A DNA stretch of 64,000 bases from an uncultured beta proteobacterium (GCA_963719715.1 CAVRDD010000054.1:7383-71382), one strand, 5' to 3'. Positions 10,671 to 39,249 are shown, counted from the first letter of the stretch. Made by a program: numbers and translations. The notes: generated by a model not told the origin, from the sequence alone.

Positions 10671-10688
10671 TTGATCCGTGATGAGGTT

Positions 10689-10830: not shown

Positions 10831-10834
10831 GACG

Positions 10835-11060: not shown

Positions 11061-11425
11061 TGCCGAAGCGAAACTCTGCTCCCCTCCTGATGGCCATGGT
11101 CGTCGGCGCACTGCTCTGGATTCTCGCCTCGGTTCTCGGTGGCAGACGCGAGCCCTGGGACAGCGCCGCTTACTGGGGCTTCGCCTATCCCGCAGCCATA
11201 TTTGTCGCGGGGTGCATCGGCTTCTTCTTTCCTGACCGGCCCTGGCGCTGGGCGCTCGCCTTGTTCGGGGCGCAATTCGTCGCCATGTGCATCCTGAATG
11301 GCGATCTCGGCAACCTCTGGCCTCTGGGGCTCGTGCTTTTTGCCATCCTCGCAACGCCGGCGGTATTCGTCGCGACCGTCGCTTCCCGACTGAGCAGCCG
11401 CTCGCGCCCGGGCGGCGTCTCCTAG
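11057..11425 (+). CDS. small integral membrane protein, unknown function
   Basis: 122 aa with about 4 predicted hydrophobic helices (LLMAMVVGALLWILASVL, AIFVAGCIGFFF, LALFGAQFVAMCIL, LGLVLFAILATPAVFVATV). Confidence 0.6.
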   Translation: MMPKRNSAPLLMAMVVGALLWILASVLGGRREPWDSAAYWGFAYPAAIFVAGCIGFFFPDRPWRWALALFGAQFVAMCILNGDLGNLWPLGLVLFAILATPAVFVATVASRLSSRSRPGGVS

Positions 11426-11632
11426 CCTTCGTACGCCGGTCGCAGACCGGCTGATCTGTCGTTCACACGCCCAGCGCCGGGCGAGCACAGGTAGTGTGCT
11501 CGTGCTTCCAATATCTGCCGCCTGCAATCGGCACGTGTGCACGCGAAGATGCGAAAATTCCGTCTGCACGCCAACCCGAGCCGGGCAGCAGCAAGAAACC
11601 TTCTTCACTCGTACACCTCATCCTCCGTTCCC

Positions 11633-13943: not shown

Positions 13944-14834
13944 ATGTCAAGCAAGGTGGGCTTTGCAGGGCTCGGCATCATGGGCCGGCCGATGGCACTC
14001 AATGTCATGAAGGGCGGTCACGCGATGGCGGTGCACGCGCGCCGCGCCGAGAGCATGCGGCCGCTGGCAGAGGCTGGTGCGGTGACGTGCGCCTCGCCCG
14101 CGGAGGTCGCGGCGAAGTCGGACGTGACCTTCGTCATGGTCTCGGACACGCCGGACGTGGAGCAGGTGATCCTCGGCCCAGGCGGCTGCAGCGAGGGCGC
14201 GAAAGCCGGCTCGGTCATCGTCGACATGAGCACCATCTCGCCTGCGGCCACGCGACGCATCGCCGCGGCGCTTGCCGAGAAAGGCATCGAGATGCTGGAC
14301 GCTCCGGTGTCCGGCGGCGAGGTCGGCGCGGTCAACGGCACGCTGTCGATCATGGTCGGTGGCCCGGCGCAGGCCTTCGAGCGCGTGCGGCCGCTCTTCG
14401 AATTGATGGGCAAGAACATCGTGCATATCGGCGAGAGCGGCGCCGGTCAGGTGGCGAAATCGTGCAACCAGATAGTTGCTGCGGTGACCATCGAGGCGGT
14501 GGCAGAAGCACTGTTGCTCGCGCGGGCGAACGGCGTCGACGCCGCGAAAGTGCGCGAGGCGCTGCTCGGCGGCTTCGCCTATTCGCGGGTGCTGGAACTG
14601 CACGGGAAGCGCATGCTCGACGACAACTTCCAACCCGGCTTCAAGGCGGCTTTGCATCAAAAAGACATGCGCATCGTGCTGCAAAGCGCATATGAACTCG
14701 GCGTGGCGCTGCCCGCCGCGGCGCTCGCCATGCAGCACATCAATGCGCTCGTCGGCAGCGGCGAAGGCGAGCTCGATTCCTCGGCGATCTACAAGGTGCT
14801 CGGGCGCATGAGCAAGAGGGGCGGCGATGCCTGA
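13944..14834 (+). CDS. NAD(P)-dependent 3-hydroxyacid dehydrogenase (2-hydroxy-3-oxopropionate / 3-hydroxyisobutyrate reductase family)
   Basis: N-terminal Rossmann motif VGFAGLGIMGRPMA and family-typical DAPVSGG. ATG 13944 was chosen within ORF 13407..14834. Confidence 0.85.
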   Translation: MSSKVGFAGLGIMGRPMALNVMKGGHAMAVHARRAESMRPLAEAGAVTCASPAEVAAKSDVTFVMVSDTPDVEQVILGPGGCSEGAKAGSVIVDMSTISPAATRRIAAALAEKGIEMLDAPVSGGEVGAVNGTLSIMVGGPAQAFERVRPLFELMGKNIVHIGESGAGQVAKSCNQIVAAVTIEAVAEALLLARANGVDAAKVREALLGGFAYSRVLELHGKRMLDDNFQPGFKAALHQKDMRIVLQSAYELGVALPAAALAMQHINALVGSGEGELDSSAIYKVLGRMSKRGGDA

Positions 14835-15711
14835 GCGCGTCGGCTTCATCGGGCTCGGCGTGATGGGCCGACCCATGGCGCTGCATCTCGCGCGTGCCGG
14901 CCATCCGCTCAGCGTCTACGCACGGCGACCGGCCGCGCTCACACCGTTGCTTGAGCAGGGCGCGGTTGCATGCGCGTCGCCCGCAGAGCTCGCACGGCGC
15001 TGTGACGTGGTCTTCACCATGGTGACGGCCGGGGCGGACGTCGAGGCGGTCGTGCTCGGTGCCGGCGGTGTCATCGAGGGCGCACGACCGGATCTCTTGG
15101 TAATCGATCACAGCACCATTCCACCGGCCACCGCCAAGCACGTCGCGGCGCAGCTCGCAGCCCACGGCGTGGCGCATCTCGACGCACCGGTCTCCGGTGG
15201 CGAGCGCGGGGCCATCGACGCTGCACTGTCGATCATGGTGGGCGGGACCGAGGGCGCGTTCCAGCGGGCCGAGCCACTTCTGCGCCGATTTGGCAAGACG
15301 GTGCTGCGCATCGGCGACGCCGGCGCGGGCCAGGCGGCGAAAGCCGCCAACCAGCTTGCCATCGTGCTCATGCTGCAGGGGATAGCTGAAGCACTCACGT
15401 TCGCAAGCGCGAGCGGCGTCGACCCTGGGAAGGTGCTGGAGGCGCTTCGCGGCGGCGCTGCCGCAAGCCGTATGCTCGACGTGATGGGAGCGAAGATGGT
15501 GAGCCGTGATTTCCGTCCAGGTGTGGAGGCGCGACTGCATCACAAGGACGTTCACATCGCGCTGGACAGCGCTGCGGCGGTCGGGCTCGCCGTTCCCGGC
15601 GCCGCGGTGGCGGCGCAGACATTCAATGCACTGATGGCGCGCGGCGGGGCCCGTCTCGACTCCGCAGCCGTGCTCACGGTGGTCGAGGCGGCGATGCGCG
15701 CCGGATCATAA
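14827..15711 (+). CDS. second NAD(P)-dependent 3-hydroxyacid dehydrogenase paralog
   Basis: VGFIGLGVMGRPMA and DAPVSGG. Its start overlaps the preceding stop by 8 nt. Confidence 0.85.
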   Translation: MPERVGFIGLGVMGRPMALHLARAGHPLSVYARRPAALTPLLEQGAVACASPAELARRCDVVFTMVTAGADVEAVVLGAGGVIEGARPDLLVIDHSTIPPATAKHVAAQLAAHGVAHLDAPVSGGERGAIDAALSIMVGGTEGAFQRAEPLLRRFGKTVLRIGDAGAGQAAKAANQLAIVLMLQGIAEALTFASASGVDPGKVLEALRGGAAASRMLDVMGAKMVSRDFRPGVEARLHHKDVHIALDSAAAVGLAVPGAAVAAQTFNALMARGGARLDSAAVLTVVEAAMRAGS

Positions 15712-16034
15712 GGTCAAACTTATCGTAACCATCAGCAAGTGCTATTGGACGCGGCCGATAGTCGATCCTAATGTCTCTCTTATAAACAGGTACGCATAGG
15801 GAGAGAAAATATATGATCATTCGCAATCGGCTTATGTCATTCGTGTTACGCAATCCGGAGCGTGAAGTCGTCACTTCCACCCGCAGACAACCTCGGGTCT
15901 TGGCCCGACTCGGGTCGAAGCTCCTGCAGAAACGCTCCGCGCTGCTCGCGCGCCATCCGCGTTAACGAGCCCCGATCGGGCGTGGACCAACAAGGTTCGC
16001 GCCTGACCGTCCTGCTGTATTCCTGAACCGCGAC

Positions 16035-18776
16035 CTACCCCGTTGCGCCGAGTCCGCTCGCCACGCAATTGATCGATAGCAGCAGGGGTGCCTTGATCGC
16101 TTCCTTCTCCGGGCCTTCGGCGGCCGCTCGAAACCGCCGCAACAGCTCAATCTGCTCGCGGCTCACCTGATTGACCGTTGGCAGTCGATGCGCGAGTCTC
16201 GCCCGGAACTCCGGGAAGCGGTCCGCGATCGCGGACTCGCCGGTGACCACCCGCACCATCTCGCACGTACGTACGTACTCGTCGCGCACCAGCTCGAAGA
16301 TCTCGTCTCGCAGCGTTGCATCGGGCACCAGTTCGGCGTACAGCCGGGCGATTTCCAGGTCCACCACCGCCAGCGTCTTTTCCGCTTCGTCCACCACCAG
16401 ACGGAACAGCCGCGACTCGCGAAACATGCGCGCCAGCAGGAGGTCGCCAGCAGCGCCGCGTACCTTCCTGAAAGCTGCGAGACCGCTGCCGAGCCCGAAC
16501 CAGCCGGTGATGATGTGGCGGTTCTGTGACCACGCGAAGACCCACGGGATCGCGCGCAACTCGGCCAGCGTTCTGGCGCCGAAGCGGCGTGCCGGACGCG
16601 AGCCGATATTGAGCAAAGAGATTTCTTCGAGCGGACTTGCCGCCTGCAGGTAAGCCACCAGTCCCGGGTGCGCCGCGAGCCGCAGGTACGCCGCGCGCGC
16701 AGCGCCCGCCAGCGCTTCCATCGCGTCGTCGAACTCCGGCACCGGCTCCAGTTCGTGCTCACGTTCTGACTTGAGCGCGTGCTCCAGCACACTCGCCGCG
16801 AGCAGTTCGACCTGGTAGGCGGCGGTGCCGCGGTTTGCATACTTGAGCGACACTACTTCGCCCTGCTCGGTGAGCCGGAAGCGGCCGCGGATCGAGCCGG
16901 CCGGCTGCGCGGCGATGGCGCGTCCGGCAGGGATGCCACCGCGACTCACGGACCCGCCGCGGCCGTGGAAGAACGCGATGGTGACGCCGTGCTCCTGCCC
17001 CACCTGCGAGAGCCGCGTCTGCGCCTTGGCAAGCTCCCAGTTCGACGGCAGAAAGCCGCCGTCCTTGTTGGAATCCGAATAGCCGATCATCACCTCCTGC
17101 AGTCCACTCTGTGCCGAGAGGCTGCGGCGTATCACCGGCACCGCCAGCAGATCGCGCATGATTGCTGGCGCACCGCGCAGGTCGTCGATGGTCTCGAAGA
17201 GCGGCATGATCGGCAACATGCATCGCTCGACGCCGGCAGGATCGGCGAAGAGGCCGGCTTCTTTCGCGAGCAGATAGACGCCGAGAATGTCGGAGGCATT
17301 CCGGGTCATGCTCAGGATGAAGCTGCCGAAGGCATCGCGGTCGGTGACGGCGCGCATCTCGCGCACGAGGCGAAAGAGCCCCAGCGTCTCCTGCGCGGTC
17401 GACGTCAGACCGCCCAGGTCGCGGGTCTCGCGCAGCGGCCGCTCGAGCTCGGCAAGCAGCCATGCGCGCCATTGCGAAGAATCATGCTGCGGCGGATCGG
17501 CCGTCGGGTCAGGCGCGCGAAGACGCCACAAACCCTCCAGCGCCTCCGTGGTGCGCGTGGAGTTTTCGCGCAGGTCCAGGCGCGCGGTGCAGAAGCGGAA
17601 GGTCTCCACCTGACGCCGAAGCGGGCGCACCAACGCACGCGCGAGTGTTTCCGCGCGTGCCGCGGTGAGCGCCGCTTCCATGGCCCGCAGATCCTCGACA
17701 AGAGCGTCGGCGGTGCCATAGCCGCTGTCGACCGGCGGCGGCTCGCCGCGCTCGGTGCAGGCGATGGTGCCCTCGAGGCGCGCGAGCATGCACATCGTGA
17801 ATTGGCGGAACGGCTCGCCGGGGTTGCGTGCGGCAATCCCATCGCTCTCCCCGCTGTGGGCGAGCGCGAGTTCGAGCCGACGACGGAAGTCTTCCGGCAG
17901 TGGGATGAGACGCCCGCTCAAGGAGAGAGAGCGCGCCAGGTCCACGAGCCGCTGGCGATGGCGCTTCAGACTGGCGAGCCGGTATTCGACGAGCGCAGCG
18001 CGGGTGACCGCGTTGGTGACGAAAGGGTTGCCGTCACGGTCGCCACCGATCCACGAGCCGAGCTCGAAAAAAGGCGGTGCTTCAAACGTGGCGCCCGTAT
18101 AGTGCTCGGCGACCGCTTCTTCCAGCTTGGCCAGGAGTTCCGGCACCACGTCGAACAGCGTCTCGCTGAAGAAGTGCAGACCCCAGAACACCTCGTGCGC
18201 GACCTGGGGCTTTTCCAGGCGCAGCTCACCGGTCAGCAGCAGCACTTCGATCTCGTTGCGCAGACTGTTTTCGAGTCCGCTGCGTTCGCGCGCGGTCCAG
18301 CGCGGGGACTGGTAGTCGAGCAGCAGAAGATAGATGCGGCGCAGACGCTCCAGCACCGTTACGCGCTTCGCCTCCGTCGGGTGCGCCGTGATCACCGGTC
18401 GCACGTGCAGGCTGCGCACCAGTGCGTGCAGCGCGTCGGGCGTAATGGCGGCGGCCGCCGCTTCCGCAATCACGAAGTGCAAGGTGCCGGGCACGTGGCT
18501 GCGTCCGCGCTCGGTCTCGATGACGCGCCGGCGCGCCATGCCGTCGTTCTCATCGGCGATGTTGAGGAGCTGGAAAAAGAGGCCCTGGGTCTGCAGCAGT
18601 CGCGCCAGCGTCGCCGGCGGCAAACCGGAGGGCGGCAACTCGCCACGGAGGATGGCGGCCACCTTCGGCTCGTGGCGCGCGGTGACCTCCAGCAGAAGAC
18701 GCGACAGCAGGGCGAGGGGCTCCCGAGCTGGGGGCTTGTCGCTCGCCGCCCGCGGCGGTGGGGCTTGGGTCGTCAT
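16035..18776 (-). CDS. ppc: phosphoenolpyruvate carboxylase
   Basis: Motifs VMIGYSDSNKDGG and FHGRGGSVSRGG; 913 aa. ATG 18776 was chosen within ORF 16035..18947. Confidence 0.95.
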   Translation of the reverse strand: MTTQAPPPRAASDKPPAREPLALLSRLLLEVTARHEPKVAAILRGELPPSGLPPATLARLLQTQGLFFQLLNIADENDGMARRRVIETERGRSHVPGTLHFVIAEAAAAAITPDALHALVRSLHVRPVITAHPTEAKRVTVLERLRRIYLLLLDYQSPRWTARERSGLENSLRNEIEVLLLTGELRLEKPQVAHEVFWGLHFFSETLFDVVPELLAKLEEAVAEHYTGATFEAPPFFELGSWIGGDRDGNPFVTNAVTRAALVEYRLASLKRHRQRLVDLARSLSLSGRLIPLPEDFRRRLELALAHSGESDGIAARNPGEPFRQFTMCMLARLEGTIACTERGEPPPVDSGYGTADALVEDLRAMEAALTAARAETLARALVRPLRRQVETFRFCTARLDLRENSTRTTEALEGLWRLRAPDPTADPPQHDSSQWRAWLLAELERPLRETRDLGGLTSTAQETLGLFRLVREMRAVTDRDAFGSFILSMTRNASDILGVYLLAKEAGLFADPAGVERCMLPIMPLFETIDDLRGAPAIMRDLLAVPVIRRSLSAQSGLQEVMIGYSDSNKDGGFLPSNWELAKAQTRLSQVGQEHGVTIAFFHGRGGSVSRGGIPAGRAIAAQPAGSIRGRFRLTEQGEVVSLKYANRGTAAYQVELLAASVLEHALKSEREHELEPVPEFDDAMEALAGAARAAYLRLAAHPGLVAYLQAASPLEEISLLNIGSRPARRFGARTLAELRAIPWVFAWSQNRHIITGWFGLGSGLAAFRKVRGAAGDLLLARMFRESRLFRLVVDEAEKTLAVVDLEIARLYAELVPDATLRDEIFELVRDEYVRTCEMVRVVTGESAIADRFPEFRARLAHRLPTVNQVSREQIELLRRFRAAAEGPEKEAIKAPLLLSINCVASGLGATG

Positions 18777-18813
18777 GGCAGCGTGCCCCGCGCCGGGCAG
18801 GCGCGGAGCGTCC

Positions 18814-19704
18814 TCAGCGCCTGCGTGAGAGGACCTGTGCAACGGTTCGGCCGAACTCGCTCGGCGCCGGCACGATGGTGATATCGCAGCCGCGCAGGAA
18901 CTCGGTCTTCTCCGGTGCACTCTCGCCCGCGGTCGAGATGATGGCACCCGCGTGCCCCATGCGGCGGCCCTTCGGTGCCGTCATGCCGGCGATGTAGCCG
19001 ATCACCGGCTTGGTCATGTTCTCCTTCACCCAGAGCGCAGCCTCCACCTCCTGCGGGCCACCGATCTCGCCGATCAGGAGCACCGCGTCGGTCTCGGGAT
19101 CCTTCTCGAAAAGCCTCAGGTGGTCGAGGAAGGAGCTGCCGTTGATGGGATCGCCGCCGATGCCGACGCTGGTCGAGATGCCGATGCCGAGCGCCTTCAT
19201 CTGGGCGGCGGCTTCGTAGCCCAGCGTGCCCGAACGCGACACGATGCCGACCCGGCCTTCCTTGTAGATGTGTCCCGGCATGATGCCGAGCATCGCCTTG
19301 CCCGGGCTGATGACGCCGGCGCAGTTCGGGCCGCACACCAGCAGGCGGTTCTCCTTCGGGTAACGACGCAGGTAGCGCTTGACCCGCATCATGTCCTGCG
19401 CCGGAATGCCGTCGGTGATGCAGACGAGGAAGCGGATGCCGGCGTCGGCCGCCTCCATGATGGCGTCGGCGCAGAAAGCGGGTGCCACGAAGGTGATGCT
19501 GGCGGTCGCGCCGGTGGCGGCCACCGCTTCCTTGACGGTGTTGAACACGGGCAGACCCAGGTGCGTGCCGCCGCCCTTGCCCGGCGTGACGCCACCGACC
19601 ACGTGGGTGCCGTATTCGATCGCTTCCTTCGCGTGGAAGCTGCCCTTTTCGCCGGTGAAACCCTGGACCAGGATCCGGCTGCTCTTGTCGATGAGAATGG
19701 CCAT
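18814..19704 (-). CDS. mtkB: malate--CoA ligase (malate thiokinase) alpha subunit / SucD-like
   Basis: SucD-fold (SRSGTLGYE, catalytic-His region GHAGAIIS). The mtkB assignment rests on its mtkA-like partner and on ppc and mcl as neighbours. Confidence 0.8.
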   Translation of the reverse strand: MAILIDKSSRILVQGFTGEKGSFHAKEAIEYGTHVVGGVTPGKGGGTHLGLPVFNTVKEAVAATGATASITFVAPAFCADAIMEAADAGIRFLVCITDGIPAQDMMRVKRYLRRYPKENRLLVCGPNCAGVISPGKAMLGIMPGHIYKEGRVGIVSRSGTLGYEAAAQMKALGIGISTSVGIGGDPINGSSFLDHLRLFEKDPETDAVLLIGEIGGPQEVEAALWVKENMTKPVIGYIAGMTAPKGRRMGHAGAIISTAGESAPEKTEFLRGCDITIVPAPSEFGRTVAQVLSRRR

Positions 19705-19723
19705 GTTGGTTGTCTCCCCCCGG

Positions 19724-20890
19724 TCAGACTGCTTTGGCCGCGGCCACTGCCTTCTGGGCGGCGTCCGCCAGATCCTCGGCGACGATGAGCGGCAGTCCGC
19801 TTTCGCGCACGATTTTCTGGCCGGCTTCGACGTTCGTGCCAGCCAGGCGCACCACCACCGGCAGCTTGATGTCGAGCTCGCGGAACGCCTTCACCACGCC
19901 CTCCGCGACCCAGTCGCAGCGGTTGATGCCGGCGAAGATGTTGACCAGCACGGTCTTCACGTTCCTGTCGCCCAGCACCACGGAGAACGCGTTCTTCACG
20001 CGCTCGGCCGAGGCGCCGCCGCCGACGTCGAGAAAGTTGGCAGGGTTGCCACCGGCGAACTTGATCATGTCGAGGGTGGCCATCGCCAGGCCGGCTCCGT
20101 TGATGAGGCAGCCGATGTCGCCATCGAGGCCGACGTAGGAGAGGTCGTATTGCGCCGCCGCCACCTCGCGCGGATCCTCCTGCGACGGGTCGCGCATCGA
20201 GGCGACGTTGCGCTGGCGGAAGAGCGCGTTCTCGTCGAAGGACATCTTGGCGTCGAGTGCGAGAATGCGCTCGTCCTTCGTGATCACCATCGGATTGATC
20301 TCCAGCATGGTGGCGTCGAGCCTGCGGAAGGCGCGATAGGCGCCGAGCATGAGCTTTGTCGCTGCGGCGACCTGCTTGATGTTGAGTCCGAGCCCGAAGG
20401 CGAGCTCGCGCGCCTCGAAGGCCAGCAGCCCGACCGCTGGCTCCACCACCACCTGCAGGATCTTGTCGGGATGCGAGTGGGCGAGCTCCTCGATCTCCAT
20501 GCCGCCCTCGGACGAGGCGATGATGCGGATGCGCTCGGCCTTGCGGTCGAGCACGATGCCGAAGTAGAGCTCGCGCTCGAACGGTTCGGCGACCTCGACG
20601 TAGATGCGCTGCACCGGCTTGCCTTCCGGACCCGTCTGATTGGTGACGAGACGCGAGCCGAGCAGATTCTTCGCCGCCTCGTGCACCTCGTGGTAGGTGC
20701 GGCAGAGCTTGATGCCGCCGGCCTTGCCGCGCGCGCCGGAATGCACCTGCGCCTTCACCGCCCAGTGCCAGCCGCCGAGCTCGGTGGCGCTGTAGACCGC
20801 CTGATCGGGGCTGTACGCAGCCATGCCCCGCGGCACCGGCACGCCGAAGCCCGACAGCAGCTCCTTCGCCTGATACTCGTGAATGTTCAT
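19724..20890 (-). CDS. mtkA: malate--CoA ligase beta subunit / SucC-like
   Basis: The [12 protein letters not shown]... ATP-grasp domain. [23 protein letters not shown] and [17 protein letters not shown] match the Methylobacterium MtkA as I recall it, rather than the SucC motif NIFGGIVRCD. Confidence 0.8.
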
Positions 20891-21142
20891 TCCTCCATCT
20901 CCTCGGGTCTTCGTGCCCCGGATTGCGGCAGTGCGGTGAGCACACCCCGACCAGGATCTCTATGATTGCTCCCGACGGCGATTCTTCGCGAGCGCCAGTG
21001 CGCACACAAGTCAGGCTTTCTGATTCCATGCATAAGAGAGTCCGAATTTTTGCGAACCGCCGCGGCGGATAGGCTTGATCACGCGAGGGCTATAATTGCC
21101 TTGGCACTCGTCCCGCCCCATAACCATCCCGGAGAGAACACC

Positions 21143-22117
21143 ATGAGCTTCACCATCGTCGAGCAGGCCACGCCGCGCCTGCACCGCTCCGAGCTCGCCG
21201 TGCCCGGCTCGAACACCGCGATCTTCGCGAAGGCGGCCAAGTCCGCCGCGGATATCGTGTTCCTCGACCTGGAGGACGCGGTATCGCCGGACGACAAGGA
21301 GCAGGCGCGCAAGAACATCGTGCAGGCGCTGAACGACATGGACTGGGGCACGAAGACGATGATGGTGCGCATCAACGGCCTCGATACGCACTACATGTAT
21401 CGCGACGTGGTCGACGTGGTCGAGAACTGCCCGCGGCTCGACATGCTGCTCATCCCAAAGGTCGGCGTGCCGCAGGACGTCTACGCACTCGACATGCTGG
21501 TGACGCAGATCGAGACCGCGAAGAAGCGCACCAAGCGCCTGGGCTTCGAGGTGCTGATCGAGACCGCGCTCGGCATGGCGAACGTCGAGGCGATCGCGCA
21601 GTCGAGCAAGCGGCTAGAGGCGATGAGCTTCGGCGTGGCCGACTACGCGGCGTCGACGCGTGCCCGCACCACCGTCATCGGCGGCGTCAACCCCGACTAT
21701 GGCGTGCTCACCGACAAGAACGAGAAGGGCGAGCGCGATTACTTCTGGGCGGACCCGTGGCACGCTGCGCTAACGCGCATAATGGTGGCATGCCGCGCGT
21801 ACGGCCTGCGGCCCATCGACGGCCCGTTCGGCGACTTCGGTGACGCCGACGCCTTCATCGCGGCGGCGAAGCGCGCGGCCGTGCTCGGCTATGAAGGCAA
21901 GTGGGCGATCCACCCGTCGCAGGTTGCGCTCGCGAATCAGGTCTTCACACCTTCGGAAGCCGAAATTGGACGCGCGCGGCGCATCCTGGAGGCGATGGCA
22001 CAGGCGGCCAAGGAGGGCAAGGGTGCGGTCTCGCTCGACGGACGCCTGATCGACATCGCGAGCATCCGCATGGCCGAGGCGCTGCTCGCCAAAGCCGATA
22101 CCATCGCCAAGGCCTAG
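21143..22117 (+). CDS. mcl: L-malyl-CoA / beta-methylmalyl-CoA lyase
   Basis: MSFTIVEQATPRLHRSELAVPGSN...FLDLEDAV.PDDKEQARKNI...MMVRINGLDTHYMYRDVVD closely parallels MclA as I recall it. GGAGAG lies upstream of ATG 21143. Confidence 0.9.
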   Translation: MSFTIVEQATPRLHRSELAVPGSNTAIFAKAAKSAADIVFLDLEDAVSPDDKEQARKNIVQALNDMDWGTKTMMVRINGLDTHYMYRDVVDVVENCPRLDMLLIPKVGVPQDVYALDMLVTQIETAKKRTKRLGFEVLIETALGMANVEAIAQSSKRLEAMSFGVADYAASTRARTTVIGGVNPDYGVLTDKNEKGERDYFWADPWHAALTRIMVACRAYGLRPIDGPFGDFGDADAFIAAAKRAAVLGYEGKWAIHPSQVALANQVFTPSEAEIGRARRILEAMAQAAKEGKGAVSLDGRLIDIASIRMAEALLAKADTIAKA

Positions 22118-22187
22118 GACAGACGCATCAGGCGCCGTGTTTCCGGCGTCGACGCTGTCCGCGTAACTCGGCAGGAGGAATTTTCAA

Positions 22188-22601
22188 GTGAGAGCTTATC
22201 CCCAGAACGGCCCGGAGGCCATGGCGCGCATCATCGCGCTCGTGCTGCTCGCCGATGCCGAGCTCGACGATTCGGAGGTGGAGATGCTCGACCGCCTTGG
22301 CATCTACAAGCGCATCGACGCGACGCGCGAGACCTTCATCCGCGTCGTCCAGGAATACTTCAACGATCTGCTCCGCGACGACGCCGGTGAGCGCATCAGT
22401 CTGATCGACGGCACGCGCATGGACGCTGTCCTCGACGCGGTGGACGACCCGCAGAAACGGCTCGATCTGGCCCGCATGCTGTTCGATCTCGTCGGCACCG
22501 ACGGCGGCATTAACGACGCGGAGCTCGCTACCATGGGTCACGTGCTCGCGCGCTGGGGTTTGAGCATGGACGAGATAGAAGGGAGTTTGTCCCGCACCTG
22601 A
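22188..22601 (+). CDS. acidic helical protein, TerB-like (function uncertain)
   Basis: 137 aa. AGGAGG lies 9 nt upstream of the GTG at 22188. The ARIIALVLLADAELDDSEVEMLDRL pattern resembles TerB-type domains. Confidence 0.5.
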   Translation: MRAYPQNGPEAMARIIALVLLADAELDDSEVEMLDRLGIYKRIDATRETFIRVVQEYFNDLLRDDAGERISLIDGTRMDAVLDAVDDPQKRLDLARMLFDLVGTDGGINDAELATMGHVLARWGLSMDEIEGSLSRT

Positions 22602-22638
22602 CGGGCTGACCGTCTGGACCCAGGTTGCACCAGCTGTG

Positions 22639-23511
22639 TCAGGCGCCGGGCTGCGCGTTATTGGGGTCGCCCGGGTTGGCGTGCGGCGGTTGCGGGACGA
22701 ACGACTGGAAATCCTCGTGTCCCTGATTGACGATGCCGCAGCTGCCGTCGGGCACTTCGTTCCACGCATCGGGGAGATCGCCAAGCGGCTCCGACATGAC
22801 GAGCCGCGTGTGGTCGCTCAAGCGCCGGAACAGCGAGTTCTGCGGATAGCGCTGGCGCAGCGCCTGCACCGCCGCGGTGTAGAACAGCGAGCGCGACTGG
22901 CGTTCGCTCGAATAGCGGAACACCCACAGCTGCTCGCCATCGGTCGTCGCAACCGTCATCTGGATCGGATGCTCGACGCCGTGGCGCCACCCGGTCGCCT
23001 CGACCAGACCCACCGCACGCTCGACGGCTGCTTGCGGATCGCGGTCCAGGCCAAAGGTCAGGGCAAGGAAGAAGAGGATCTCCGAGTCGGTGGATCCCTG
23101 GATGTCCGGATACAGGGACGGCTCCACCGCGAGCACGAGATCGCGTTTGACGCGCTGGAAGTCGCGGATCGCGCCGTTGTGCATCCACAGCCAGCGGTCG
23201 TGCCGGAAGGGGTGACAGTTCGTCTGCTGGACGGGGCTGCCGGTGGAGGCGCGGATGTGCGCGAAGACCAGTGGCGATTCGATGGCGCCCGCCAGTTCGC
23301 GCAGGTTGCGATCGTTCCATATCGGCTCGATGCTGCGGAACACCGCCGGCGCGCAGCGCGCGCCGTACCAGCCGATCCCGAATCCGTCGCCGTTCGTGCT
23401 CTCGGCGCCGAGCCGCGCCCGCAGACTCTGATCGATCAGCGAATGCGCGGGCTTGTAGAGCAGATCCTCCAGAAGAATCGGCGTACCCGCATACGCAAGC
23501 CAGCGACACAT
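22639..23511 (-). CDS. class II (Ntn) glutamine amidotransferase family protein
   Basis: N-terminal MCRWLAY (catalytic Cys2), GDGFGIGWY, HNGAI. ATG 23511 was chosen within ORF 22639..23631. Confidence 0.8.
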   Translation of the reverse strand: MCRWLAYAGTPILLEDLLYKPAHSLIDQSLRARLGAESTNGDGFGIGWYGARCAPAVFRSIEPIWNDRNLRELAGAIESPLVFAHIRASTGSPVQQTNCHPFRHDRWLWMHNGAIRDFQRVKRDLVLAVEPSLYPDIQGSTDSEILFFLALTFGLDRDPQAAVERAVGLVEATGWRHGVEHPIQMTVATTDGEQLWVFRYSSERQSRSLFYTAAVQALRQRYPQNSLFRRLSDHTRLVMSEPLGDLPDAWNEVPDGSCGIVNQGHEDFQSFVPQPPHANPGDPNNAQPGA

Positions 23512-23786
23512 TCTTTTCCAATCCTCTCGCGACAATGACGGAGTGCTGAGAATCGCAACCCGGCAACGCCATAGGGCTTGAGCAGAATCTGGACCCGTCC
23601 GGAGCCGCTTCATTCCTTCGGCCGGAGCCAAGGGCTAACGTACCATGGCTGCGCGGGTCGCTCAACGGCGGAAGCTGGCCCCGTCAATGGATCGATCGGG
23701 TGAGCCTCGCTGCCCCAGCGTCTGACGCGGCTGCAAGCAGAGCGTGCGAAACGAACTTGCGGCGGGTCCGCCGGCGGGATTTCTGG

Positions 23787-25939
23787 CTACCCGCATTTCA
23801 TTTCATTGTCCGCCAGGATTCGTTCGATCTGATCCGCCTCGGGAATGCGCAGCCGGCGTGCGTCTGCCAAGGCGAGGCAAAGTAACTCGTTGGCTGAATT
23901 ACGGTCTTCCACACCTTTCCCGGCCAGCAAGGTCAGCGCAATCTTGGCCCGGCAGACGAGCAATTCGCGCACGTCGCCCAGGCGCTCGTAGACCGGGAGC
24001 TGTTCTTCGGTGCGGATGCGCAGCGCCTCGTCGAGCTCGCCGCGCGCTTGCAGGATGTCGGCGATCTTTCCCATCGTCACCGCCTTCTCGCGCACGTCGC
24101 CCAGGCGCTCGTAGACCGGGAGCTCTTCTTCGGTGCGGATGCGCAGCGCCTCGTCGAGCTCGCCGCGCGCTTGCAGGATGTCGGCGATCTTTCCCATCGT
24201 CACCGCCTTCTCGCGCACGTCGCCCAGGCGCTCGTAGACCGGGAGATCTTCTTCGGTGCGGATGCGCAGCGCCTCGTCGAGCTGCCCGCGCGAGCGCAGG
24301 ATGTCGGCGATTTTTCCCATCGTCACCGCCTTCGCGCGCACGTCGCCCAGGCGCTCGCAGACCGGCAGCTCTTCTTCGCGGCGGATGCGCAGCGCCTCGT
24401 CGAGCTCGCCGCGCGCTTGCAGGATGTCGGCGATTTTTCCCATCGTCACCGCCTTCGAGCGCACGTCGCCCAGGCGCTCGTAGACCGGGAGCTCTTCTTC
24501 GCGGCGGATGCGCAGCGCCTCGTCGAGCTCGCCGCGCGCTTGCAGGATGTCGGCGATTTGTCCCATCGTCACCGCCTTCGAGCGCACGTCGCCCAGGCGC
24601 TCGTAGACCGGGAGCTCTTCTTCGGTGCGGATGCGCAGCGCCTCGTCGAGCTCGCCGCGCGCTTGCAGGATGTCGGCGATTTGTCCCATCGTCACCGCCT
24701 TCGAGCGCACGTCGCCCAGGCGCTCGTAGACCGGGAGCTCTTCTTCGGTGCGGATGCGCAGCGCCTCGTCGAGCTCGCCGCGCGCTTGCAGGATGTCGGC
24801 GATTTGTCCCATCGTCACCGCCTTCTCGCGCACGTCGCCCAGGCGCTCGTAGACCGGGAGCTGTTCTTCGGTGCGGATGCGCAGCGCCTCGTCGAGCTCG
24901 CCGCGCGCTTGCAGGATGTCGGCGATCTTTCCCATCGTCACCGCCTTCTCGCGCACGTCGCCCAGGCGCTCGTAGACCGGGAGCTGTTCTTCGGGGCGGA
25001 TGCGCAGCGCCTCGTCGAGCTGCCCGCGCGAGCGCAGGATGTCGGCGATTTTTCCCATCGTCACCGCCTTCGAGCGCACGTCGCCCAGGCGCTCGTAGAC
25101 CGGGAGCTGTTCTTCGGTGCGGATGCGCAGCGCCTCGTCGAGCTCGCCGCGCGCTTGCAGGATGTCGGCGATCTTTCCCATCGTCACCGCCTTCTCGCGC
25201 ACGTCGCCCAGGCGCTCGTAGACCGGGAGCTCTTCTTCGGTGCGGATGCGCAGCGCCTCGTTGACGTTCCCGCGCGACAACTCCATATCAGCGATCTCGG
25301 CCCACCCATCCCAGGCGATGCCTCAGGACGTGCTCATCTTCCGAACCCAGGGAGGACGCGATCCGCGCGCGTAGTTCTCTCAATCGTTCTGCGCGTTCCT
25401 GCGCGGACAGGCGAGGGTCGACGCCGAATTCCCAGTCGCGGCGCGCCACGGGGCGAATCTCGACAGTGGTGAGTTCAGGAAATGCGATCGTATCGCTGCG
25501 CCAGTCGAAAAAGTCTGGTGCACCCGCAGTCAATGCGCCGAGGAATCGGTGAGGCACCCAGAAGACGACCGCATGTGGAACGCGCGCACGCCACTCGATG
25601 CGGCGGAGATTGAGGTTGGCCAGCAAGCGTTGAGCATGAGCACTATTGCCCAACCCCCGCTCGACGCCCACCGACCATCACAGGACCCGGCGGGGCATCC
25701 GTGAGAGTATCAGTGACTGCCTCCAGTACGTCGTCCGTATTGTCGGAGAGCTCAACGCGGTGCATAGTCGTGCCCGGCATGGAGGCGGCAAGGTTGGCGA
25801 TGAACTCGTCACGGCTGGCGGGCGCATCACAGGTGCAAATATAAAGCGAAAAGCCGCGGCTCCTTGCGATGCCGCGCCGTAGCGCGCGAAACGCCGCGCC
25901 TGCTTGCTCCAGGGGGGATTCAGCGGCGGAATCGCTCAA
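23787..25939 (-). pseudogene. N-terminal unknown domain + 11-12 x 41-aa TPR-like repeat protein (two frame disruptions; start uncertain)
   Basis: Three ORF pieces (25643..25978, 25288..25671, 23787..25286) join into one reading. The joined translation is ...GFSLYICTCDAPASRDEFIANL...GPVMV|GVERGLGNSAHAQRLLANLNLRRIEW...VVFWVP...APDFFDWRSDTIAFPE...EHVLR|IAWDGWAEIADMELSRGNVNEALRIR, followed by the repeats. Shifts lie near 25655-25680 and 25308-25330. A possible TTG start at 25939 overlaps the upstream stop. Confidence 0.6.
23968..25320 (-). repeat. tandem array of ~11 near-identical 123-bp units (coding 41-aa TPR-like repeats)
   Basis: The CGCACGTCGCCCAGGCGCTCGTAGACCGGGAG motif recurs at 23968, 24091 and 24214, and by extrapolation every 123 bp up to 25198. 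Consensus REKAVTMGKIADILQARGELDEALRIRTEEELPVYERLGDV. Confidence 0.95.
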
Positions 25940-27233
25940 GAGTGCGCAAAACCGGGTTGATCTCGTACCACATCTCACCGTTCATGTACTCGAACACGAA
26001 CAGGAGCAACAGCATCTGCTGATGGAGGTCATCCTTCGGGATGTCGGGCTGGGGATGATCGAATTTCTTGAGTGTTTTCCCCAGGCCGCATCCGGCACTT
26101 CGCGCAACAGCGCGTTGCCGTACTTGCGGATGGCTTTCTCGGCGGCCTCGCGGGTGATCGGGAGTTCGTCCAGCTCATTGCAGGCGGATTGCAGAAACAT
26201 CATCAGGTGCCGAGGGTGACCTCCGCTCATTTCGCAGAGACGGTTCAACGTTTCCTCGTCGTCGAAGGCTTCCGCTATCGACGTCTTGGCAAAACGGCAA
26301 CGGCTCTCGACCATCTCACGCATCTTGGCCATGCCGGGGGACGCTGGCGTAACTGGCTGATCGCGGTTCGGTCTCAGACGGATCATCGACACTGGCGCGT
26401 GGTGCTCGCCGATGCATTGTTCGAGCTGCCGAAGCGAGGGAGTAAATCAGCGAAATGGGCACCGTATAGATGGTGTGCGCCTTCAACGAGGCAAGCTGCT
26501 CGCTCCGATCGATGAACAGACGATCGTGTGTATTGTTGCCATTGCCGAGGTCGCGCCGCACCAGTTTGTCGAGGCCGTCTATGATCAGTACGAGACCTGA
26601 ATGGTCGGCGATGTGGGCGGCGGCCTGCGCTGAGGACAGCAGATCGTTGACTGCGTTGAGGAGCGACGTGCTGTGCTTTTCCACGGCTTCGCGCAGCAGT
26701 CCGCGCGAGTTGGGACGGTTGCGCAGTTCGGTGGTCAGCTTCCCGAAACCCGCGTCTACCTCGATTTTCTCCAATTCCACCTGGCTGCCCAGCATGCCGC
26801 GAATGTCGTCCCAGACGCGTCTGAGATAAGTCGTCACAGGGTCGAAACCACTGAGGCCAGCTTTGCTGAGCTGCTGCTGCAGCAGCGACGCGACGAAAAC
26901 CAGCAGATCGGGGAAATCCAGGTCGTTGACATCCAGTTGGTCGCTGACGTCGCCAAACACGACAAGGAAGCCGCGCTTGCTGTCGTTCGGCTCCTCAAGC
27001 AGTGCCTTCAGACGGAACAGCTCGCTCGTCTTCCCTACGCCGCGATGGCCAGTGAACAGCTTGAAGTCGGAACTGTCCGGTTTCGCTCGCCGGAGGCTCC
27101 GCGCGTAAAGCGAAACTACGTTCTCGTCGCCGCGGACCGCATCGAAATCCACCCAGCGCACGTCGTTCGGGTGCAGAGATTCCAATGGCTCGCAGGCTTG
27201 GTAGAGCCGTGTAATGGCGGGGAGGTCAGGCAT
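25920..27233 (-). pseudogene. STAND/ORC-like P-loop NTPase (two compensating frame disruptions)
   Basis: Walker A GHRGVGKTSEL; Walker B LVLIIDGLDKL; then IYTVPISLIYS|...LRQLEQCIGEHHAPVSMIRLR...; SGGHPRHLMMF (GxP-like motif); ...VPDAAW|GKTLKKFDHPQPDIPKDDLHQQMLLLLFVFEYMNGEMWYEINPVLRTLERFRR*. Shifts lie near 26425-26450 and in the TTTTCCCC run at 26075-26082. Confidence 0.65.
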
Positions 27234-27384
27234 GTCGATTGGTCCCGAATCGGCTTCTGCACATTGTAGACAAGTTGATAGCAATGCGAATGCTCCGGTC
27301 GGTGGCAGAACCGAACATTCGGCAGCCACGAGACGGGCAGCGAATGCGGGTTCAGACTAACCGTGAAAACAGGCACGAAGCCAG

Positions 27385-28150
27385 TCAGCCGCGCTCCGGA
27401 AACGCGGCTGCGACGAGCTGCGGCAACACCGCCGCCGCCGGGCCGCGCAGCGAGAATCTCGCGTGCGGCGTGAGCGGCGTCGGATCGGGATTCACTTCGA
27501 CGACGCAGCGCCCGGCGTGCAGCGCCTGAAACGGCAGCGAGGCCGCCGGCTCGACCACGGTCGAGGTGCCCACGGAAAGGAAGACTTCGCATTCTGAGGA
27601 CGCGCGCATCGCGGTACTCGAGCGCCTCTGCCGGCAGCATCTCGCCGAACCACACGACGTCTGGTCGCAGCATGCCGCCGCAATCGAGGCAGCGCGGCGG
27701 CACCACGTCGCCCGGCCAGTCGGATTCGGCGGCAACGCGGTCGCAGACGAAGCATTTCGAACGCATGATGTTGCCGTGCAGTTCGACGATGTGGCGGCTG
27801 CCGGCGCGCGCGTGCAGGCCATCGACATTCTGGGTGACGAGCAGAAACTCCGGCGCGCGCGATTCCAGCTCGACCAGCGCCCGGTGTCCCGCGTTCGGCT
27901 CCGCCTTCGCGACCAGTTCACGCCGCCATGCGTACCACTCCCACACCAGCTTCGGGTCGTGTGCGAAGGCTTCGGGCGTGGCGAGCTCTTCCGGGCGGAA
28001 GCGCGCCCAGAGACCGGTCATTGCGTCGCGGAAGGTGGGTATGCCGGATTCGGCGGAGATGCCGGCACCGGTGAGCACGACGATACGCTGCGCGCCGCGC
28101 AGTCGGTCGACCAGCGCTTCGGGTAAGGCGACTGTCGCGGCGGAAGCCAT
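27385..28150 (-). pseudogene. cobB: NAD-dependent protein deacylase, sirtuin/CobB type (one frame disruption)
   Basis: GAGISAESGIPTFRD, QNVDGLH, ELHGN, Zn-ribbon cysteines CFVC...CLDCGG. After EMLPAEALE the conserved continuation AMRASSECEVFLSVGTSTVVEPAA...VEVNP is in another frame (ORF 27385..27921). Shift near 27608-27622. Confidence 0.8.
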
Positions 28151-28165
28151 GCGTTTCCTGTGACT

Positions 28166-28199
28166 GAAAAAAAGAAGGGGCCGGCTGCCGCACGGCCCC
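28166..28199 (-). terminator. rho-independent terminator downstream of the DegP-like gene
   Basis: On the minus strand: GGGGCCG-tgcggcagc-CGGCCCC followed by TTCTTTTTTT. Confidence 0.8.
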
Positions 28200-28245: not shown

Positions 28246-29745
28246 CTAGCCCTGATTCGGCGCCACCGGGATGAAGATGGTGGCCTCACCGCGCTTGACG
28301 AGCAGCGCCAGCGGCGCGCCCTTGGGTGCCTGCTCCAGCGTCTTGCCGAGGTCGTCGGTGTCGCTGATGCGGGCGCCGTTGACGCCGACGATCACGTCAC
28401 CCTGCCGGATACCCGATTTCGCCGCCGGACCCTGCGCCCGCTCGACCTTCACGCCACCTTCCAGTCCGAGGGCCTTGCGCTCGCGTGCGTCGAGCTCCGA
28501 CACGGAAAGCCCCAGGCTCGACATCTTGCGCGCCTCGCCTGCGCCACCGCGGTTGGCTGCCTGCGCGAGCTTGTCCGAAGGCGCTTCGCCGACCGCGACA
28601 TTCGTCTTCTGCTCCTTGCCGTCGCGCAGGTAGACCACACTCGCCTTCGCGCCAGGCTTGGTTGCGGCCACCAGCGGCGGCAGCGTGGAGAATTCCTCCA
28701 CCTTCTTGCCGTCGTACTCGACGATCACGTCGCCCGCTTTGAGTCCGGCTTTCGCGGCCGCGCTGTCCGGGTCGACAGCGGCGACCAGCGCCCCTTTCGC
28801 GTCCTTGAGACCGAACGACTTGGCGAGATCGCCCGAGATCGCCTGAATGCGTACACCCAGCTGGCCGCGCGTCACCTTGCCGTTCGCCTTCAGCTGGTCG
28901 GCGACGTTCATGGCGATATCGATCGGAATCGCGAAGGACACGCCCATGTAACCGCCGGTGCGGCTGTAGATCTGCGAGTTGATGCCGATCACCTCGCCGG
29001 CCAGGTTGAAGAGCGGTCCGCCCGAGTTGCCTGGATTGACCGCCACGTCGGTCTGGATGAACGGCACGTAGCTGTCGTCCGGCAGCGAGCGGCCCTTCGC
29101 GCTGACGATGCCAGAGGTCACGCTGTTCTCGAAGCCGAACGGCGAGCCGATCGCGGCCACCCATTCGCCGACCTTCACCTTGCCCGGGTCGCCCATCCTG
29201 AGCGACGGCAGGTTCTTGGCGTCGATCTTGACCAGCGCAACGTCGGTCCGCTTGTCGACGCCGATCACCTTGGCCGCGAACTCGCGACGGTCGGTGAGCT
29301 TCACGGTCACATGGTCGGCGCCGTCCACCACGTGCGCATTGGTAAGCACGTAACCGTCGTCGCTCACGATGAAGCCGGAGCCCACACCGCGCTCGGGCGC
29401 TTCGCGACCCGGTTGGTCATCCGGACCGGGCGTCGGCATCGGCATGCCGAAGCGCTTGAAGAACTCGAACATGGGGCTGTCTTCGGGGATGCCTGGAAGA
29501 TCGGGCCCGTTCTGCGCGACGTTCTCACGCGTCACCGAGATGTTCACCACCGCGGCGCCCGTTGCGTCCACCAGGGCGCTGAAGTCGGGAAGTCCGCTGG
29601 GAGTCTGTTGCACCAGCGTGGGTAAAGGCGCGGCGTTGGCCTCGGCGAGCTTTGGCATGTGGTCATTGGAGCAGCCGGCTGCGAACGCGGCGATGACGGC
29701 TGCTGCGACAGCGCTGCGTACAACGCGCGTTTTGTTGCTGGTCAT
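28246..29745 (-). CDS. periplasmic serine endoprotease DegP/DegQ/MucD family (trypsin-like domain + 2 PDZ)
   Basis: Catalytic motifs TNAHVV and GNSGGPL, two PDZ-like segments, and a lipoprotein-like signal peptide. ATG 29745 was chosen within ORF 28246..29781. Confidence 0.9.
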   Translation of the reverse strand: MTSNKTRVVRSAVAAAVIAAFAAGCSNDHMPKLAEANAAPLPTLVQQTPSGLPDFSALVDATGAAVVNISVTRENVAQNGPDLPGIPEDSPMFEFFKRFGMPMPTPGPDDQPGREAPERGVGSGFIVSDDGYVLTNAHVVDGADHVTVKLTDRREFAAKVIGVDKRTDVALVKIDAKNLPSLRMGDPGKVKVGEWVAAIGSPFGFENSVTSGIVSAKGRSLPDDSYVPFIQTDVAVNPGNSGGPLFNLAGEVIGINSQIYSRTGGYMGVSFAIPIDIAMNVADQLKANGKVTRGQLGVRIQAISGDLAKSFGLKDAKGALVAAVDPDSAAAKAGLKAGDVIVEYDGKKVEEFSTLPPLVAATKPGAKASVVYLRDGKEQKTNVAVGEAPSDKLAQAANRGGAGEARKMSSLGLSVSELDARERKALGLEGGVKVERAQGPAAKSGIRQGDVIVGVNGARISDTDDLGKTLEQAPKGAPLALLVKRGEATIFIPVAPNQG

Positions 29746-29837
29746 GTAGCATCTCTCCTTGAGCGAGGCGACGAAGGCCAACGGCCTTCTACGCCACGCA
29801 TCCTAGGCGGCGATGCTTAAGCGAGACTTAACGGTTG

Positions 29838-38814: not shown

Positions 38815-39249
38815 CCCGTCTAACGTGCTCCGCTGCCCATGTGGCAGACGGAGCTTTCGCCTCAAGGCGGAGTTCTTCAAGAAGTTAGCTGCCGCGGACT
38901 CCTGGTCCTTCTTGGCTGCGCCTGTCTCTCGGGTGGCATCCCAATGCCACATCGAGCCCGACTACCCGCCGGCGTACCGCACCGGGCCACTGCGATCAGC
39001 CATGCCATCGCCCGCCATCATCTTCTTCAACTCGTTGCGCGTTTTCCCACTCGCCAGTACTCTCCGCCACGGAAGCGGGGTGTTATAGTCCCTCGCGATG
39101 CTCGAACGGGCGGTACTGCGGCGCTCCGCCTGACCGAGGCTTCACTCGTTTCGTGCGACACTTTGGAGTTCACATCCGTGGGATCACCGCCGCAGTTGGG
39201 CAGCGCTGTCTGTCTCTCTACCTCACGCAACATCGCATGTCGCTTACTT

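Follow-up and report, generated by a model that had tools for sequence, protein, structure and literature searches.

A proposed split STAND-like sensor pair, apparently undescribed, next to a resident sirtuin gene in an uncultured beta proteobacterium

In a 64,000-nucleotide stretch of DNA from an uncultured beta proteobacterium (GCA_963719715.1 CAVRDD010000054.1:7383-71382; the window), the gene of a P-loop nucleoside triphosphatase (NTPase) and the gene of a tetratricopeptide repeat (TPR) protein that follows it form a real and apparently undescribed cassette, which is a split STAND-like sensor pair and not a three-gene system built on nicotinamide adenine dinucleotide (NAD). Both genes lie on the minus strand downstream of degP (28246-29781) and are co-oriented with a sirtuin gene that precedes them. 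An earlier reading of the window (the original prediction) had grouped these three genes after the DegP terminator into one module, with the sirtuin as its candidate enzymatic partner; the genes, motifs, repeats and frame breaks that it described are all found, and the sirtuin falls outside the cassette.

Comparative data give strong evidence that the NTPase, the N-terminal domain of its partner (the N-domain) and the TPR repeats would work as one unit, because the two genes are adjacent, are the only ones that the loci have in common, co-vary in sequence and can exchange the position of the gene boundary. Specifically, in a survey of genome loci that comprises the best 80 of the 191 NTPase matches in GTDB species genomes, the N-domain is encoded directly 3' of the NTPase on the same strand at 77 loci, and the three exceptions end at a contig edge, which bears out the claim that the NTPase and the repeat protein are a genuine unit. 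The paired loci belong to Proteobacteria, Planctomycetota, Acidobacteriota, Verrucomicrobiota, Chloroflexi, Methylomirabilia, and Cyanobacteria, and the two genes either overlap, by up to 134 nt, or are separated by up to 231 nt. The window follows the family rule of an NTPase homologue and then, on the same strand, a gene that codes for an ALRRG…LNxxR…APDFFDWRS N-domain and TPRs. All-against-all clustering of the open reading frames (ORFs) from about -6 to +9 kb around the 80 loci identifies no third conserved gene, the next cluster being present in 11 loci. Moreover, the identities of the two proteins to those of the window rise and fall together (Spearman rho 0.90, n = 77). Lastly, two loci from independent samples (L169 6001-9391 and L170 1823-5213) code for the NTPase and the N-domain in a single 611-aa protein (P0263) and for the TPRs in a separate 494-aa gene product; the N-domain is recognised within the fusion with an hhalign probability of 99% (E 7e-18).

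The motifs of the NTPase and the Foldseek matches of its AlphaFold2 (AF2) model identify it as the predicted nucleotide-binding module of an ORC/STAND-type AAA+ protein, devoid of a sensor and of an effector. The protein contains a Walker A motif (GHRGVGKTSEL), a Walker B motif (LVLIIDGLDKL), and an SGGHPRHL motif; among 28 aligned homologues, GHRGVGKTSE and LVLIIDGLD are invariant or nearly so and SGGHPRHL is invariant. After repair of its frame, the 438-aa product aligns end to end with homologues of 438-440 aa and is 89% identical to the intact homologue P0001. About 55 residues, and not the 65 or so first counted, precede the P-loop and correspond to the usual AAA_16/Cdc6-type lead-in; the absence of an effector domain stands, since Pfam finds no other domain in the protein. 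The AF2 model (pLDDT 87.6, pTM 0.88) consists of a P-loop core with a long helical insert, a lid that bears the GGHPR residues, and a C-terminal winged helix made of a helix and a beta-hairpin. Searched against the PDB with Foldseek, it retrieves ORC1/Cdc6, CED-4, SSO1545, RFC, TnsC, RdrA, the NRC1 NB-ARC domain, NLRP3, and MalT, the best matches being 7tjh_A, 1w5t, and 2fna at TM-scores of only ~0.4, a genuine if moderate likeness of fold to ORC/Cdc6. Of the features that define STAND proteins, the NTPase has the Walker A and B motifs, the GxP-type helical domain and the winged helix, and it has neither sensor repeats on the same chain, which ends after the winged helix, nor an N-terminal effector. 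Motifs, fold matches and Pfam thus agree with the original description of a STAND-like P-loop NTPase that carries no effector domain.

This NTPase also escapes assignment to any described system, as first proposed, in that no Pfam, NCBIfam, or PADLOC model recognises it at a curated cut-off or a significant score. Pfam returns only sub-threshold AAA_16, ORC-CDC6-like, AAA_22, and NACHT matches, and the ORC-CDC6-like one (PF24389) scores 17 bits over 50 residues against a gathering threshold of 27. The NF047389 model (Sll1717 family, cut-off 75 bits) gives 43.4 bits with P0001, 42.5 with P0079, and 21.6-30.7 with four further homologues from the genome loci, three of them cyanobacterial, while the model of the DS41_1 anti-phage protein (NF053860) gives 16-23 bits with the family against a cut-off of 370. 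PADLOC yields no match to the repaired NTPase at E<=0.1, and a sequence search of the PDB with the NTPase profile yields chance matches only (E >= 0.06). The family is sizeable and has no annotation beyond "hypothetical" or "TPR protein": a word-indexed search collects 693 NTPase-family proteins of 57-89% identity from Chromatiaceae, Rhodocyclaceae, Competibacteraceae, Planctomycetota, and others, every one labelled "hypothetical", and an exhaustive profile search collects 652 clusters (at 50% identity) at E<=1e-30 and 2,239 at E<=1e-10.

Some relatives depart from the standard layout. Five distant ones, namely P0294 (947 aa), P0366 (981 aa), and P0303, P0311, and P0340 (~990 aa), have 250-560 extra residues: in P0294 an N-terminal AAA_16 domain and TPRs precede the NTPase, in P0366 a second AAA/nSTAND-like domain follows it, and the other three have N-terminal extensions of ~550 aa in which Pfam finds no match. 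These extra domains could hold the missing output domains; those of P0294 and P0366 were also considered as counterparts of the partner N-domain and discarded, as they do not match its profile. Other copies are shortened or interrupted. The NTPase match skips approximately residues 110-245, including the helical insert and Walker B, in a Lamprocystis metagenome-assembled genome (MAG; L054 10001-10887) and in Thiohalocapsa sp. ML1 (L056 10001-10897), which probably carry inactive copies with a full partner gene still adjoining, and the match is split at L052, L053, and L067.

The partner protein begins at a putative start that overlaps the NTPase stop and carries an N-domain of ~230 aa ahead of the repeats, in line with the ~220 aa originally estimated. 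The domain is kept in all clades and is marked by the motifs ALRRG, GFxLxxxxC, GxE, LNLxRxxW, VVFWVP, and APDFFDWRS; every alignment shows the three named residues of LNxxR and the D that comes first in (A)PDFFDWR(S) to be invariant, and in most alignments the remainder of (A)PDFFDWR(S), an N-terminal Arg, a Phe, and a Gly are invariant or nearly so. The model of a homologue that is 70% identical to the window's partner (P0124, pLDDT 88.9) shows a five-stranded alpha/beta domain followed by a linker and the TPR helices, in which strand 1 leads into C-x-x-P in place of a glycine-rich loop with Lys. ORC3/4, the AAA+ domain of Sir3, FtsH, NSF, ClpC, Avs4, and the STAND-TPR structure 6mfv also appear in its Foldseek list. 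The model thus lends moderate support to the N-domain being a P-loop-less AAA+-like domain. In a Pfam scan of 73 partner proteins, the 25 families that occur most often are all TPR-type or other helical repeats, with no enzymatic domain among them, and PADLOC returns for the partner only generic TPR matches or spurious Cas matches.

The rest of the partner is dominated by its repeats, which Tandem Repeats Finder places at 23965-25276 with a period of 123 nt, 10.7 copies, and 95% matches. The near-identical 41-aa TPR-like units are thus as first described, while their number is ten full units plus a degenerate one that runs into the C-terminal cap, instead of 11-12. The ten units of the window differ at eight codons (6, 9, 13, 21, 28, 34, 35, and 38), and their pairwise differences amount to 157 nonsynonymous versus 37 synonymous. 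The unit, ALRIRxEExLPVYERLGDVRxKAVTxGxIADILxxRGxLDE, recurs 106 times at 18 loci, among them planctomycete and Methylomirabilia MAGs with N-domains of just 35-46% identity to that of the window; at these loci, entropy is highest at positions 6, 9, 21, 26, 28, 34, and 35, largely the variable positions of the window, and the copy number varies from ~1 to ~15 across loci. Nearly the same unit (…LPVYERLGDVRSRAVTMGKIADILQSRGELDEALRIRREEQ…) occurs in planctomycete and Methylomirabilia cassettes (L044 11295-12437; L039, L043, L047, L049; L015), the N-domains of which are only 31-46% identical to that of the window, so that conservation of the repeat unit greatly exceeds that of the remaining protein. 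Units exchanged between lineages, or a very strong constraint, would account for this conservation across phyla. Fungal NLR proteins offer a precedent, as their TPR, ANK, and WD repeats combine high internal conservation with polymorphism in number and few diversifying positions (PMC4986451); what is unusual in the cassette is that distant phyla have the unit in common.

Taken as a whole, these features lead us to favour, at somewhat better than even chance, a ligand-gated receptor complex composed of a STAND/ORC-type switch and a P-loop-less AAA+-like TPR subunit and encoded by a self-contained, horizontally mobile cassette. The NTPase and its partner would form one complex, in which the TPR array would bind a protein or peptide ligand and the pseudo-ATPase N-domain would dock on the active ATPase as a neighbouring AAA+ protomer does. 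The invariant Arg of APDFFDWRS lies just before strand 5, where AAA+ arginine fingers are found, and may supply an arginine in trans. Binding of the ligand would then gate ATP-dependent oligomerisation or conformational switching, much as in a sensor/helper NLR pair, and the output, which would not be encoded in the cassette, may depend on the winged helix or on a factor from another locus.

The setting in which such a receptor would operate is suggested by the distribution of the cassette. The NTPase is found in 191 of 185,579 GTDB species genomes (~0.1%), in a patchy pattern that crosses phyla: the hosts include Acidobacteriota, Verrucomicrobiota, Chloroflexi, Methylomirabilia, and, at 31-35% identity, many filamentous cyanobacteria, and the family is common in filamentous cyanobacteria, purple sulfur bacteria, planctomycetes, and floc-forming wastewater bacteria. 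PLSDB contains ten plasmids with a relative, nine of them cyanobacterial (Nostoc, Acaryochloris, Calothrix). The 141 first neighbours of the cassette are heterogeneous, and the only recurrent Pfam families among them are TPRs (8), DUF2518 (4), ResIII (3), and AAA_16 (3). The most likely setting, presumptively, is one of conflict or defence. The patchy cross-phylum distribution, the foreign composition, the plasmid copies, the deleted or split copies, and the repeat dynamics speak for it; the case is weakened in that defence genes are scarce among the neighbours, no effector is encoded, and the ATPase and the repeat unit are exceptionally conserved.

Several observations weigh against the receptor proposal or its defensive setting. 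The assignment of the N-domain to AAA+ comes from one AF2 model, the Foldseek list of which is dominated by TPR proteins (LGN), and the sequence link to the P-loop domain of the NTPase is weak: hhalign aligns the two colinearly with a non-significant probability of 13%, with Walker B opposite the G-x-E strand and the sensor-1 region opposite LNxxR…VVFWVP, so that homology by sequence was rejected and the alignment kept as a hint only. The physical interaction and the arginine finger are parts of the mechanism that we infer. The mechanism is also incomplete, since Pfam detects no effector or output domain in the NTPase or among the 25 most frequent families of the 73 partners. Moreover, the NTPase is 57-60% identical between phyla, with 132 near-invariant columns, which is unusual for a defence gene, and the 41-aa unit is likewise conserved across phyla; the conservation of both is as compatible with a conserved target in the cell as with an invader. 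Lastly, the NTPase profile finds no relative among the 2.9 million viral contigs of IMG/VR and hence no sign of carriage by phages, and the commonest PADLOC families (SNF2/ZorD-like, DpdE, and methyltransferase models) match 2 of the 141 neighbours each.

The same conservation is one argument for an ATP-dependent regulator or scaffold that acts on a conserved host target outside any conflict, for instance a DNA-binding switch working through the winged helix or an adaptor pair similar to NSF/SNAP or to co-chaperones. Neighbourhoods made up largely of everyday metabolic genes and poor in defence genes, the failure to find a nuclease, TIR, protease, or pore-forming effector, and best fold matches to the ORC/Cdc6 DNA-binding initiators would all suit such a role. 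It is nevertheless rather unlikely, as a cassette that is confined to so few species genomes scattered across phyla, has a lower G+C content at third codon positions (GC3) than its host, travels on plasmids, varies in repeat number with focused hypervariable positions, and is deleted or split in several genomes displays the traits of accessory genes.

A bolder version of the receptor proposal, which we put forward tentatively and consider doubtful as a whole, is that the pair represents a new and widespread two-subunit immune or surveillance receptor of bacteria that works like paired NLRs. In that case, the hypervariable positions of the stereotyped 41-aa TPR modules would form a combinatorial recognition surface on the P-loop-less sensor, the sensor would activate a separate and highly conserved helper ATPase of the ORC/STAND type, and the output, with no fused effector, might consist of nucleic-acid binding by the winged helix or of the recruitment of a host factor. 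Should the pair be a working receptor, it would imply that in bacteria the NLR/STAND logic can be divided between two chains that evolve together, a nucleotide switch and a repeat sensor, one of which keeps only a dead ATPase domain, in parallel with sensor/helper NLRs and with the mixed active and inactive subunits of ORC and clamp loaders; being compact, it would also lend itself to the question of how a STAND protein that lacks an effector signals.

Comparison with known systems places the cassette close to STAND/NLR-like proteins (Avs/AVAST, NB-ARC-TPR, MalT), with which it shares the P-loop domain, the helical domain with a GxP-type GGHPR motif, the winged helix, the fold matches to CED-4, the NRC1 NB-ARC domain, NLRP3, MalT, and Avs4, and TPR_10/TPR_12 repeats as the presumed sensor. 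In contrast to them, its repeats are on a separate chain together with a second, P-loop-less AAA+-like domain, it has no N-terminal effector, and it matches no PADLOC or Pfam STAND model. What appears to be new and undescribed is the division of a STAND/NLR-like switch between two chains, one of them a pseudo-ATPase sensor subunit. In plant sensor/helper NLR pairs, one subunit has a competent nucleotide-binding module and the other has a recognition surface and a degenerate nucleotide site; the analogy with the cassette is functional, the sequences are unrelated, and the plant pairs carry coiled-coil (CC) or TIR effectors. ORC/Cdc6 and archaeal SSO1545-type proteins have the AAA+ core, the lid, and the C-terminal winged helix in the same order, the N-terminal region of the NTPase resembles the pre-Walker-A "GRE" segment of ORC/Cdc6, and a cassette assembly would, like ORC, mix active and inactive AAA+ subunits. 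Conversely, PF24389 stays below its cut-off, the TM-scores are ~0.4, no link to a replication origin is evident, and ORC has no TPR partner.

Closer to bacterial conflict systems, the iSTAND ternary systems possess an inactive STAND-like component, are enriched in cyanobacteria and planctomycetes, and are defined by a MoxR-vWA couple (PMC7159879). The cassette resembles them in its catalytically inactive STAND-like component and differs in having neither MoxR-vWA nor any other conserved third gene, MoxR and vWA both being absent from the 25 most frequent families of its neighbours. We find no account of the pair in the survey of NTP-dependent conflict systems (Kaur et al. 2020, PMC7159879) or in a 2026 survey of defence STAND proteins. 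The nearest curated models, NF047389 and NF053860, represent ATPases close in size to the NTPase, with profile lengths of 454 and 448, and are matched far below their cut-offs (43 vs 75 and 22 vs 370 bits); the anti-phage activity of DS-41 (DefensePredictor) was validated in E. coli, its gene was cloned alone (PMC13092281), and it lacks a TPR partner. The TPRs of fungal NLRs (Dyrka et al. 2014, PMC4986451) are of the same TPR_10 type (PF13374), with near-identical units, variable number, and few variable codons, whereas the unit of the cassette is 41 aa long, is kept between distant phyla, and belongs to a protein with no functional NOD.

The sirtuin is a canonical resident housekeeping deacylase of the CobB type, a neighbour of the cassette in one narrow lineage, and it is judged a bystander because it passes a deacylase model, has a host-like GC3, is separated from the NTPase by a promoter-like site, and does not co-occur with the cassette elsewhere. 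Specifically, once its single frameshift is bridged, it scores 191 bits with Pfam SIR2 and 298.8 bits with the NCBIfam model NF001753 "NAD-dependent protein deacylase" (cut-off 243), and its translation shows the catalytic His (ELHG) and a Cys4 zinc ribbon (CFVC...CLDC), in agreement with the compact CobB-type enzyme first recognised. Against the PADLOC models of SIR2 effectors (ThsA, DSR, SIR2-HerA, and SIR2-pAgo), the best match is not significant (E 0.049, 9.7 bits, 35 residues). The GC3 of the sirtuin gene (0.82-0.85) falls within that of the flanking genes (0.82-0.91), as distinct from the NTPase (~0.75-0.78) and the N-domain (~0.66-0.70). The promoter-like site is a consensus match from a scan that found one site where 0.6 are expected by chance.

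These data bear on the possibility that sirtuin, NTPase, and TPR protein form a three-gene system in which the sirtuin is the NAD-consuming effector activated by the sensor pair, as in SIR2-based defence. The three genes are indeed adjacent and co-oriented in the window, in the Burkholderiales MAG contig L087, and in L088, a 3' fragment of the sirtuin gene lies beside the NTPase in a different upstream context at L017, and genes with an NAD connection adjoin the cassette at two loci (an isochorismatase-family gene in L001; NadM-Nudix and NAMPT in L003). However, no sirtuin is present within 10 kb at 79 of the 80 genome loci, and the fragment at L017, the sole exception, is non-functional. Full adjacency of sirtuin and NTPase is limited to the window and L087, as the L088 contig begins inside the sirtuin gene, and the NTPases of the sirtuin-adjacent loci have at least 83-84% nucleotide identity to that of the window. 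Reciprocally, none of the 80 metagenomic loci that hold the closest relatives of the sirtuin (50-66% identity) contains the NTPase or the N-domain; one of these relatives has a DegP-like neighbour. L087, the single syntenic relative identified, carries the cassette, and L088 and L017 match the window over the sirtuin-cassette stretch only. Close relatives that have cobB beside degP and no cassette, a case raised in the original prediction, were looked for and not found, the metagenome scan having yielded sirtuins of 50-66% identity only. SIR2 and NAD-salvage families are not among the recurrent neighbour families either. The co-occurrence survey, together with the deacylase features, the non-significant PADLOC match, the GC3, and the promoter-like site, largely refutes the sirtuin-effector reading, which we regard as very improbable, and with it the part of the original prediction that had cast the sirtuin as third component and enzymatic partner. 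A broader link to NAD metabolism, considered on account of the neighbours in L001 and L003, was likewise dropped, as no such family recurs among the 141 immediate neighbours and no third gene is common to the loci.

At L017 (8654-10000), a MAG contig labelled as Acidobacteriota, homology to the window starts inside the sirtuin gene (~27681), which is joined to a truncated M1-peptidase ORF; the junction carried the 3' fragment of the sirtuin along with the cassette, and the L017 NTPase is also frameshifted.

All three genes of the window are interrupted. The original prediction had counted five frame disruptions, two of them compensating within the NTPase; alignment to L087, L088, and L017 confirms their presence in each gene and raises the count to seven single-base events at six sites, of which one is in the sirtuin gene, three are in the NTPase gene, and two are in the partner gene (Table 1). 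The NTPase lesions do sum to zero, over three sites, yet the shifted frame between them runs into a stop at 26316. Programmed frameshifting was ruled out because every close homologue is a single uninterrupted ORF.

The interruptions could mean that the sirtuin, NTPase, and TPR genes are genuine recent pseudogenes in a decaying cassette, a reading to which we give an appreciable but minority probability. The window alone differs from the aligned relatives at each indel site, deleted copies exist in other genomes (L054 and L056), and the seven indels are packed into 2.3 kb, as against ~14 kb of flanking coding sequence in which all eleven genes match L087 proteins as single, essentially full-length alignments. 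Conversely, the repaired NTPase departs from the family at 1 of the 132 near-invariant columns, where intact homologues depart at 1-8, and the indels therefore accumulated with no accompanying substitutions. The lesions also have the pattern of consensus errors: the majority alter the length of short runs of C, G, or A, each of two adjacent homopolymers has one base too many, and the two 1-nt deletions in the NTPase are 9 nt apart with the correct residues PRFG readable in the intermediate frame. Moreover, split matches occur in related MAGs labelled MFD, and the frameshifts of the window cluster in at least two patches, the other of which affects the unrelated genes gluQRS (57719-58785, minus strand), M1 peptidase (59172-61115, minus strand), and ChaN-PDZ (60770-61650, minus strand). 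In gluQRS, positions 4-108 and 154-256 of the tRNA-synt_1c profile are in different frames, as are positions 10-72 and 71-213 of Cofac_haem_bdg in the ChaN-PDZ gene. Because these genes at 57.7-61.7 kb are frameshifted too, local error of the assembly consensus is no less likely than decay, and frame breaks are not specific to the module. The locus thus calls for caution on two counts: its sirtuin link is synteny in one lineage, and its apparent pseudogenes may be assembly errors.

The features of the region are collected in Table 1. The G+C-rich hairpin between degP and the sirtuin gene was read from the sequence and is not flagged by a simple scan for consensus terminators, and an Rfam scan of the whole window finds no RNA family.

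Table 1. Features of the sirtuin and cassette region of the window, all on the minus strand, with the frame lesions of each gene.
Feature	Position	Strand	Remarks
Terminator-like hairpin and T-run	28166-28199	-	GGGGCCG...CGGCCCC then TTCTTTTTTT; between degP and the sirtuin start
CobB-type sirtuin	27385-28150	-	+1 frameshift at ~27622; judged a neighbour, outside the cassette
Sigma-70-like promoter match	27263-27290	-	TTCGCA-16-TACAAT; in the sirtuin-NTPase spacer; consensus match only
Predicted ORC/Cdc6-STAND-type AAA+ NTPase	25920-27233	-	438 aa after repair; -1 at ~26439, -1 at ~26430, +2 at ~26079
Partner gene	~25978-23787	-	Putative GTG start at 25978 overlaps the NTPase stop
Partner N-domain, putatively AAA+-like alpha/beta, no P-loop	25300-25978	-	+1 at ~25673, +1 at ~25307
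TPR_12/TPR_10-type array of 41-aa units	23965-25276	-	123-nt period; ten units and one degenerate
Partner C-terminal cap	23787-23964	-	…ALADARRLRIPEADQIERIL…; kept in proteobacterial homologues

The window is syntenic with the Burkholderiales MAG contig L087 (GCA_046348505.1) over more than 17 kb at 84-86% nucleotide identity, with the common order response regulator, histidine kinase, DegP, SIR2, NTPase, TPR, GATase, TerB-like protein, and then malyl-CoA-lyase-like, malate-thiokinase-like, and phosphoenolpyruvate (PEP) carboxylase genes. L087 encodes an unbroken sirtuin of 254 aa and an unbroken NTPase of 440 aa, and gene calling divides its TPR gene (10001-11772) into ORFs of 375 and 213 aa that meet inside the repeat array, through either a genuine break or a problem of repeat assembly. 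A gene block beside the cassette (14000-23600 in the window, 11837-21128 in L087) codes for an HpcH/malyl-CoA-lyase-like protein, two succinyl-CoA/malate-thiokinase-like ligase subunits, PEP carboxylase, and two NAD-binding dehydrogenases. Its proteins are 88-97% identical to those of the Burkholderiales MAG, and the block resembles genes of the serine cycle or of C1/C2 assimilation. The small TerB-like protein (22188-22601, plus strand), encoded between the GATase and the lyase gene, has a sub-threshold match to Pfam TerB (22 bits) and is kept in L087. Lastly, the stretches at 7000-11000 and 39000-46000 have a G+C content of 0.54-0.62, compared with ~0.66-0.69, and little GC3 coding signal, and they may be acquired islands.

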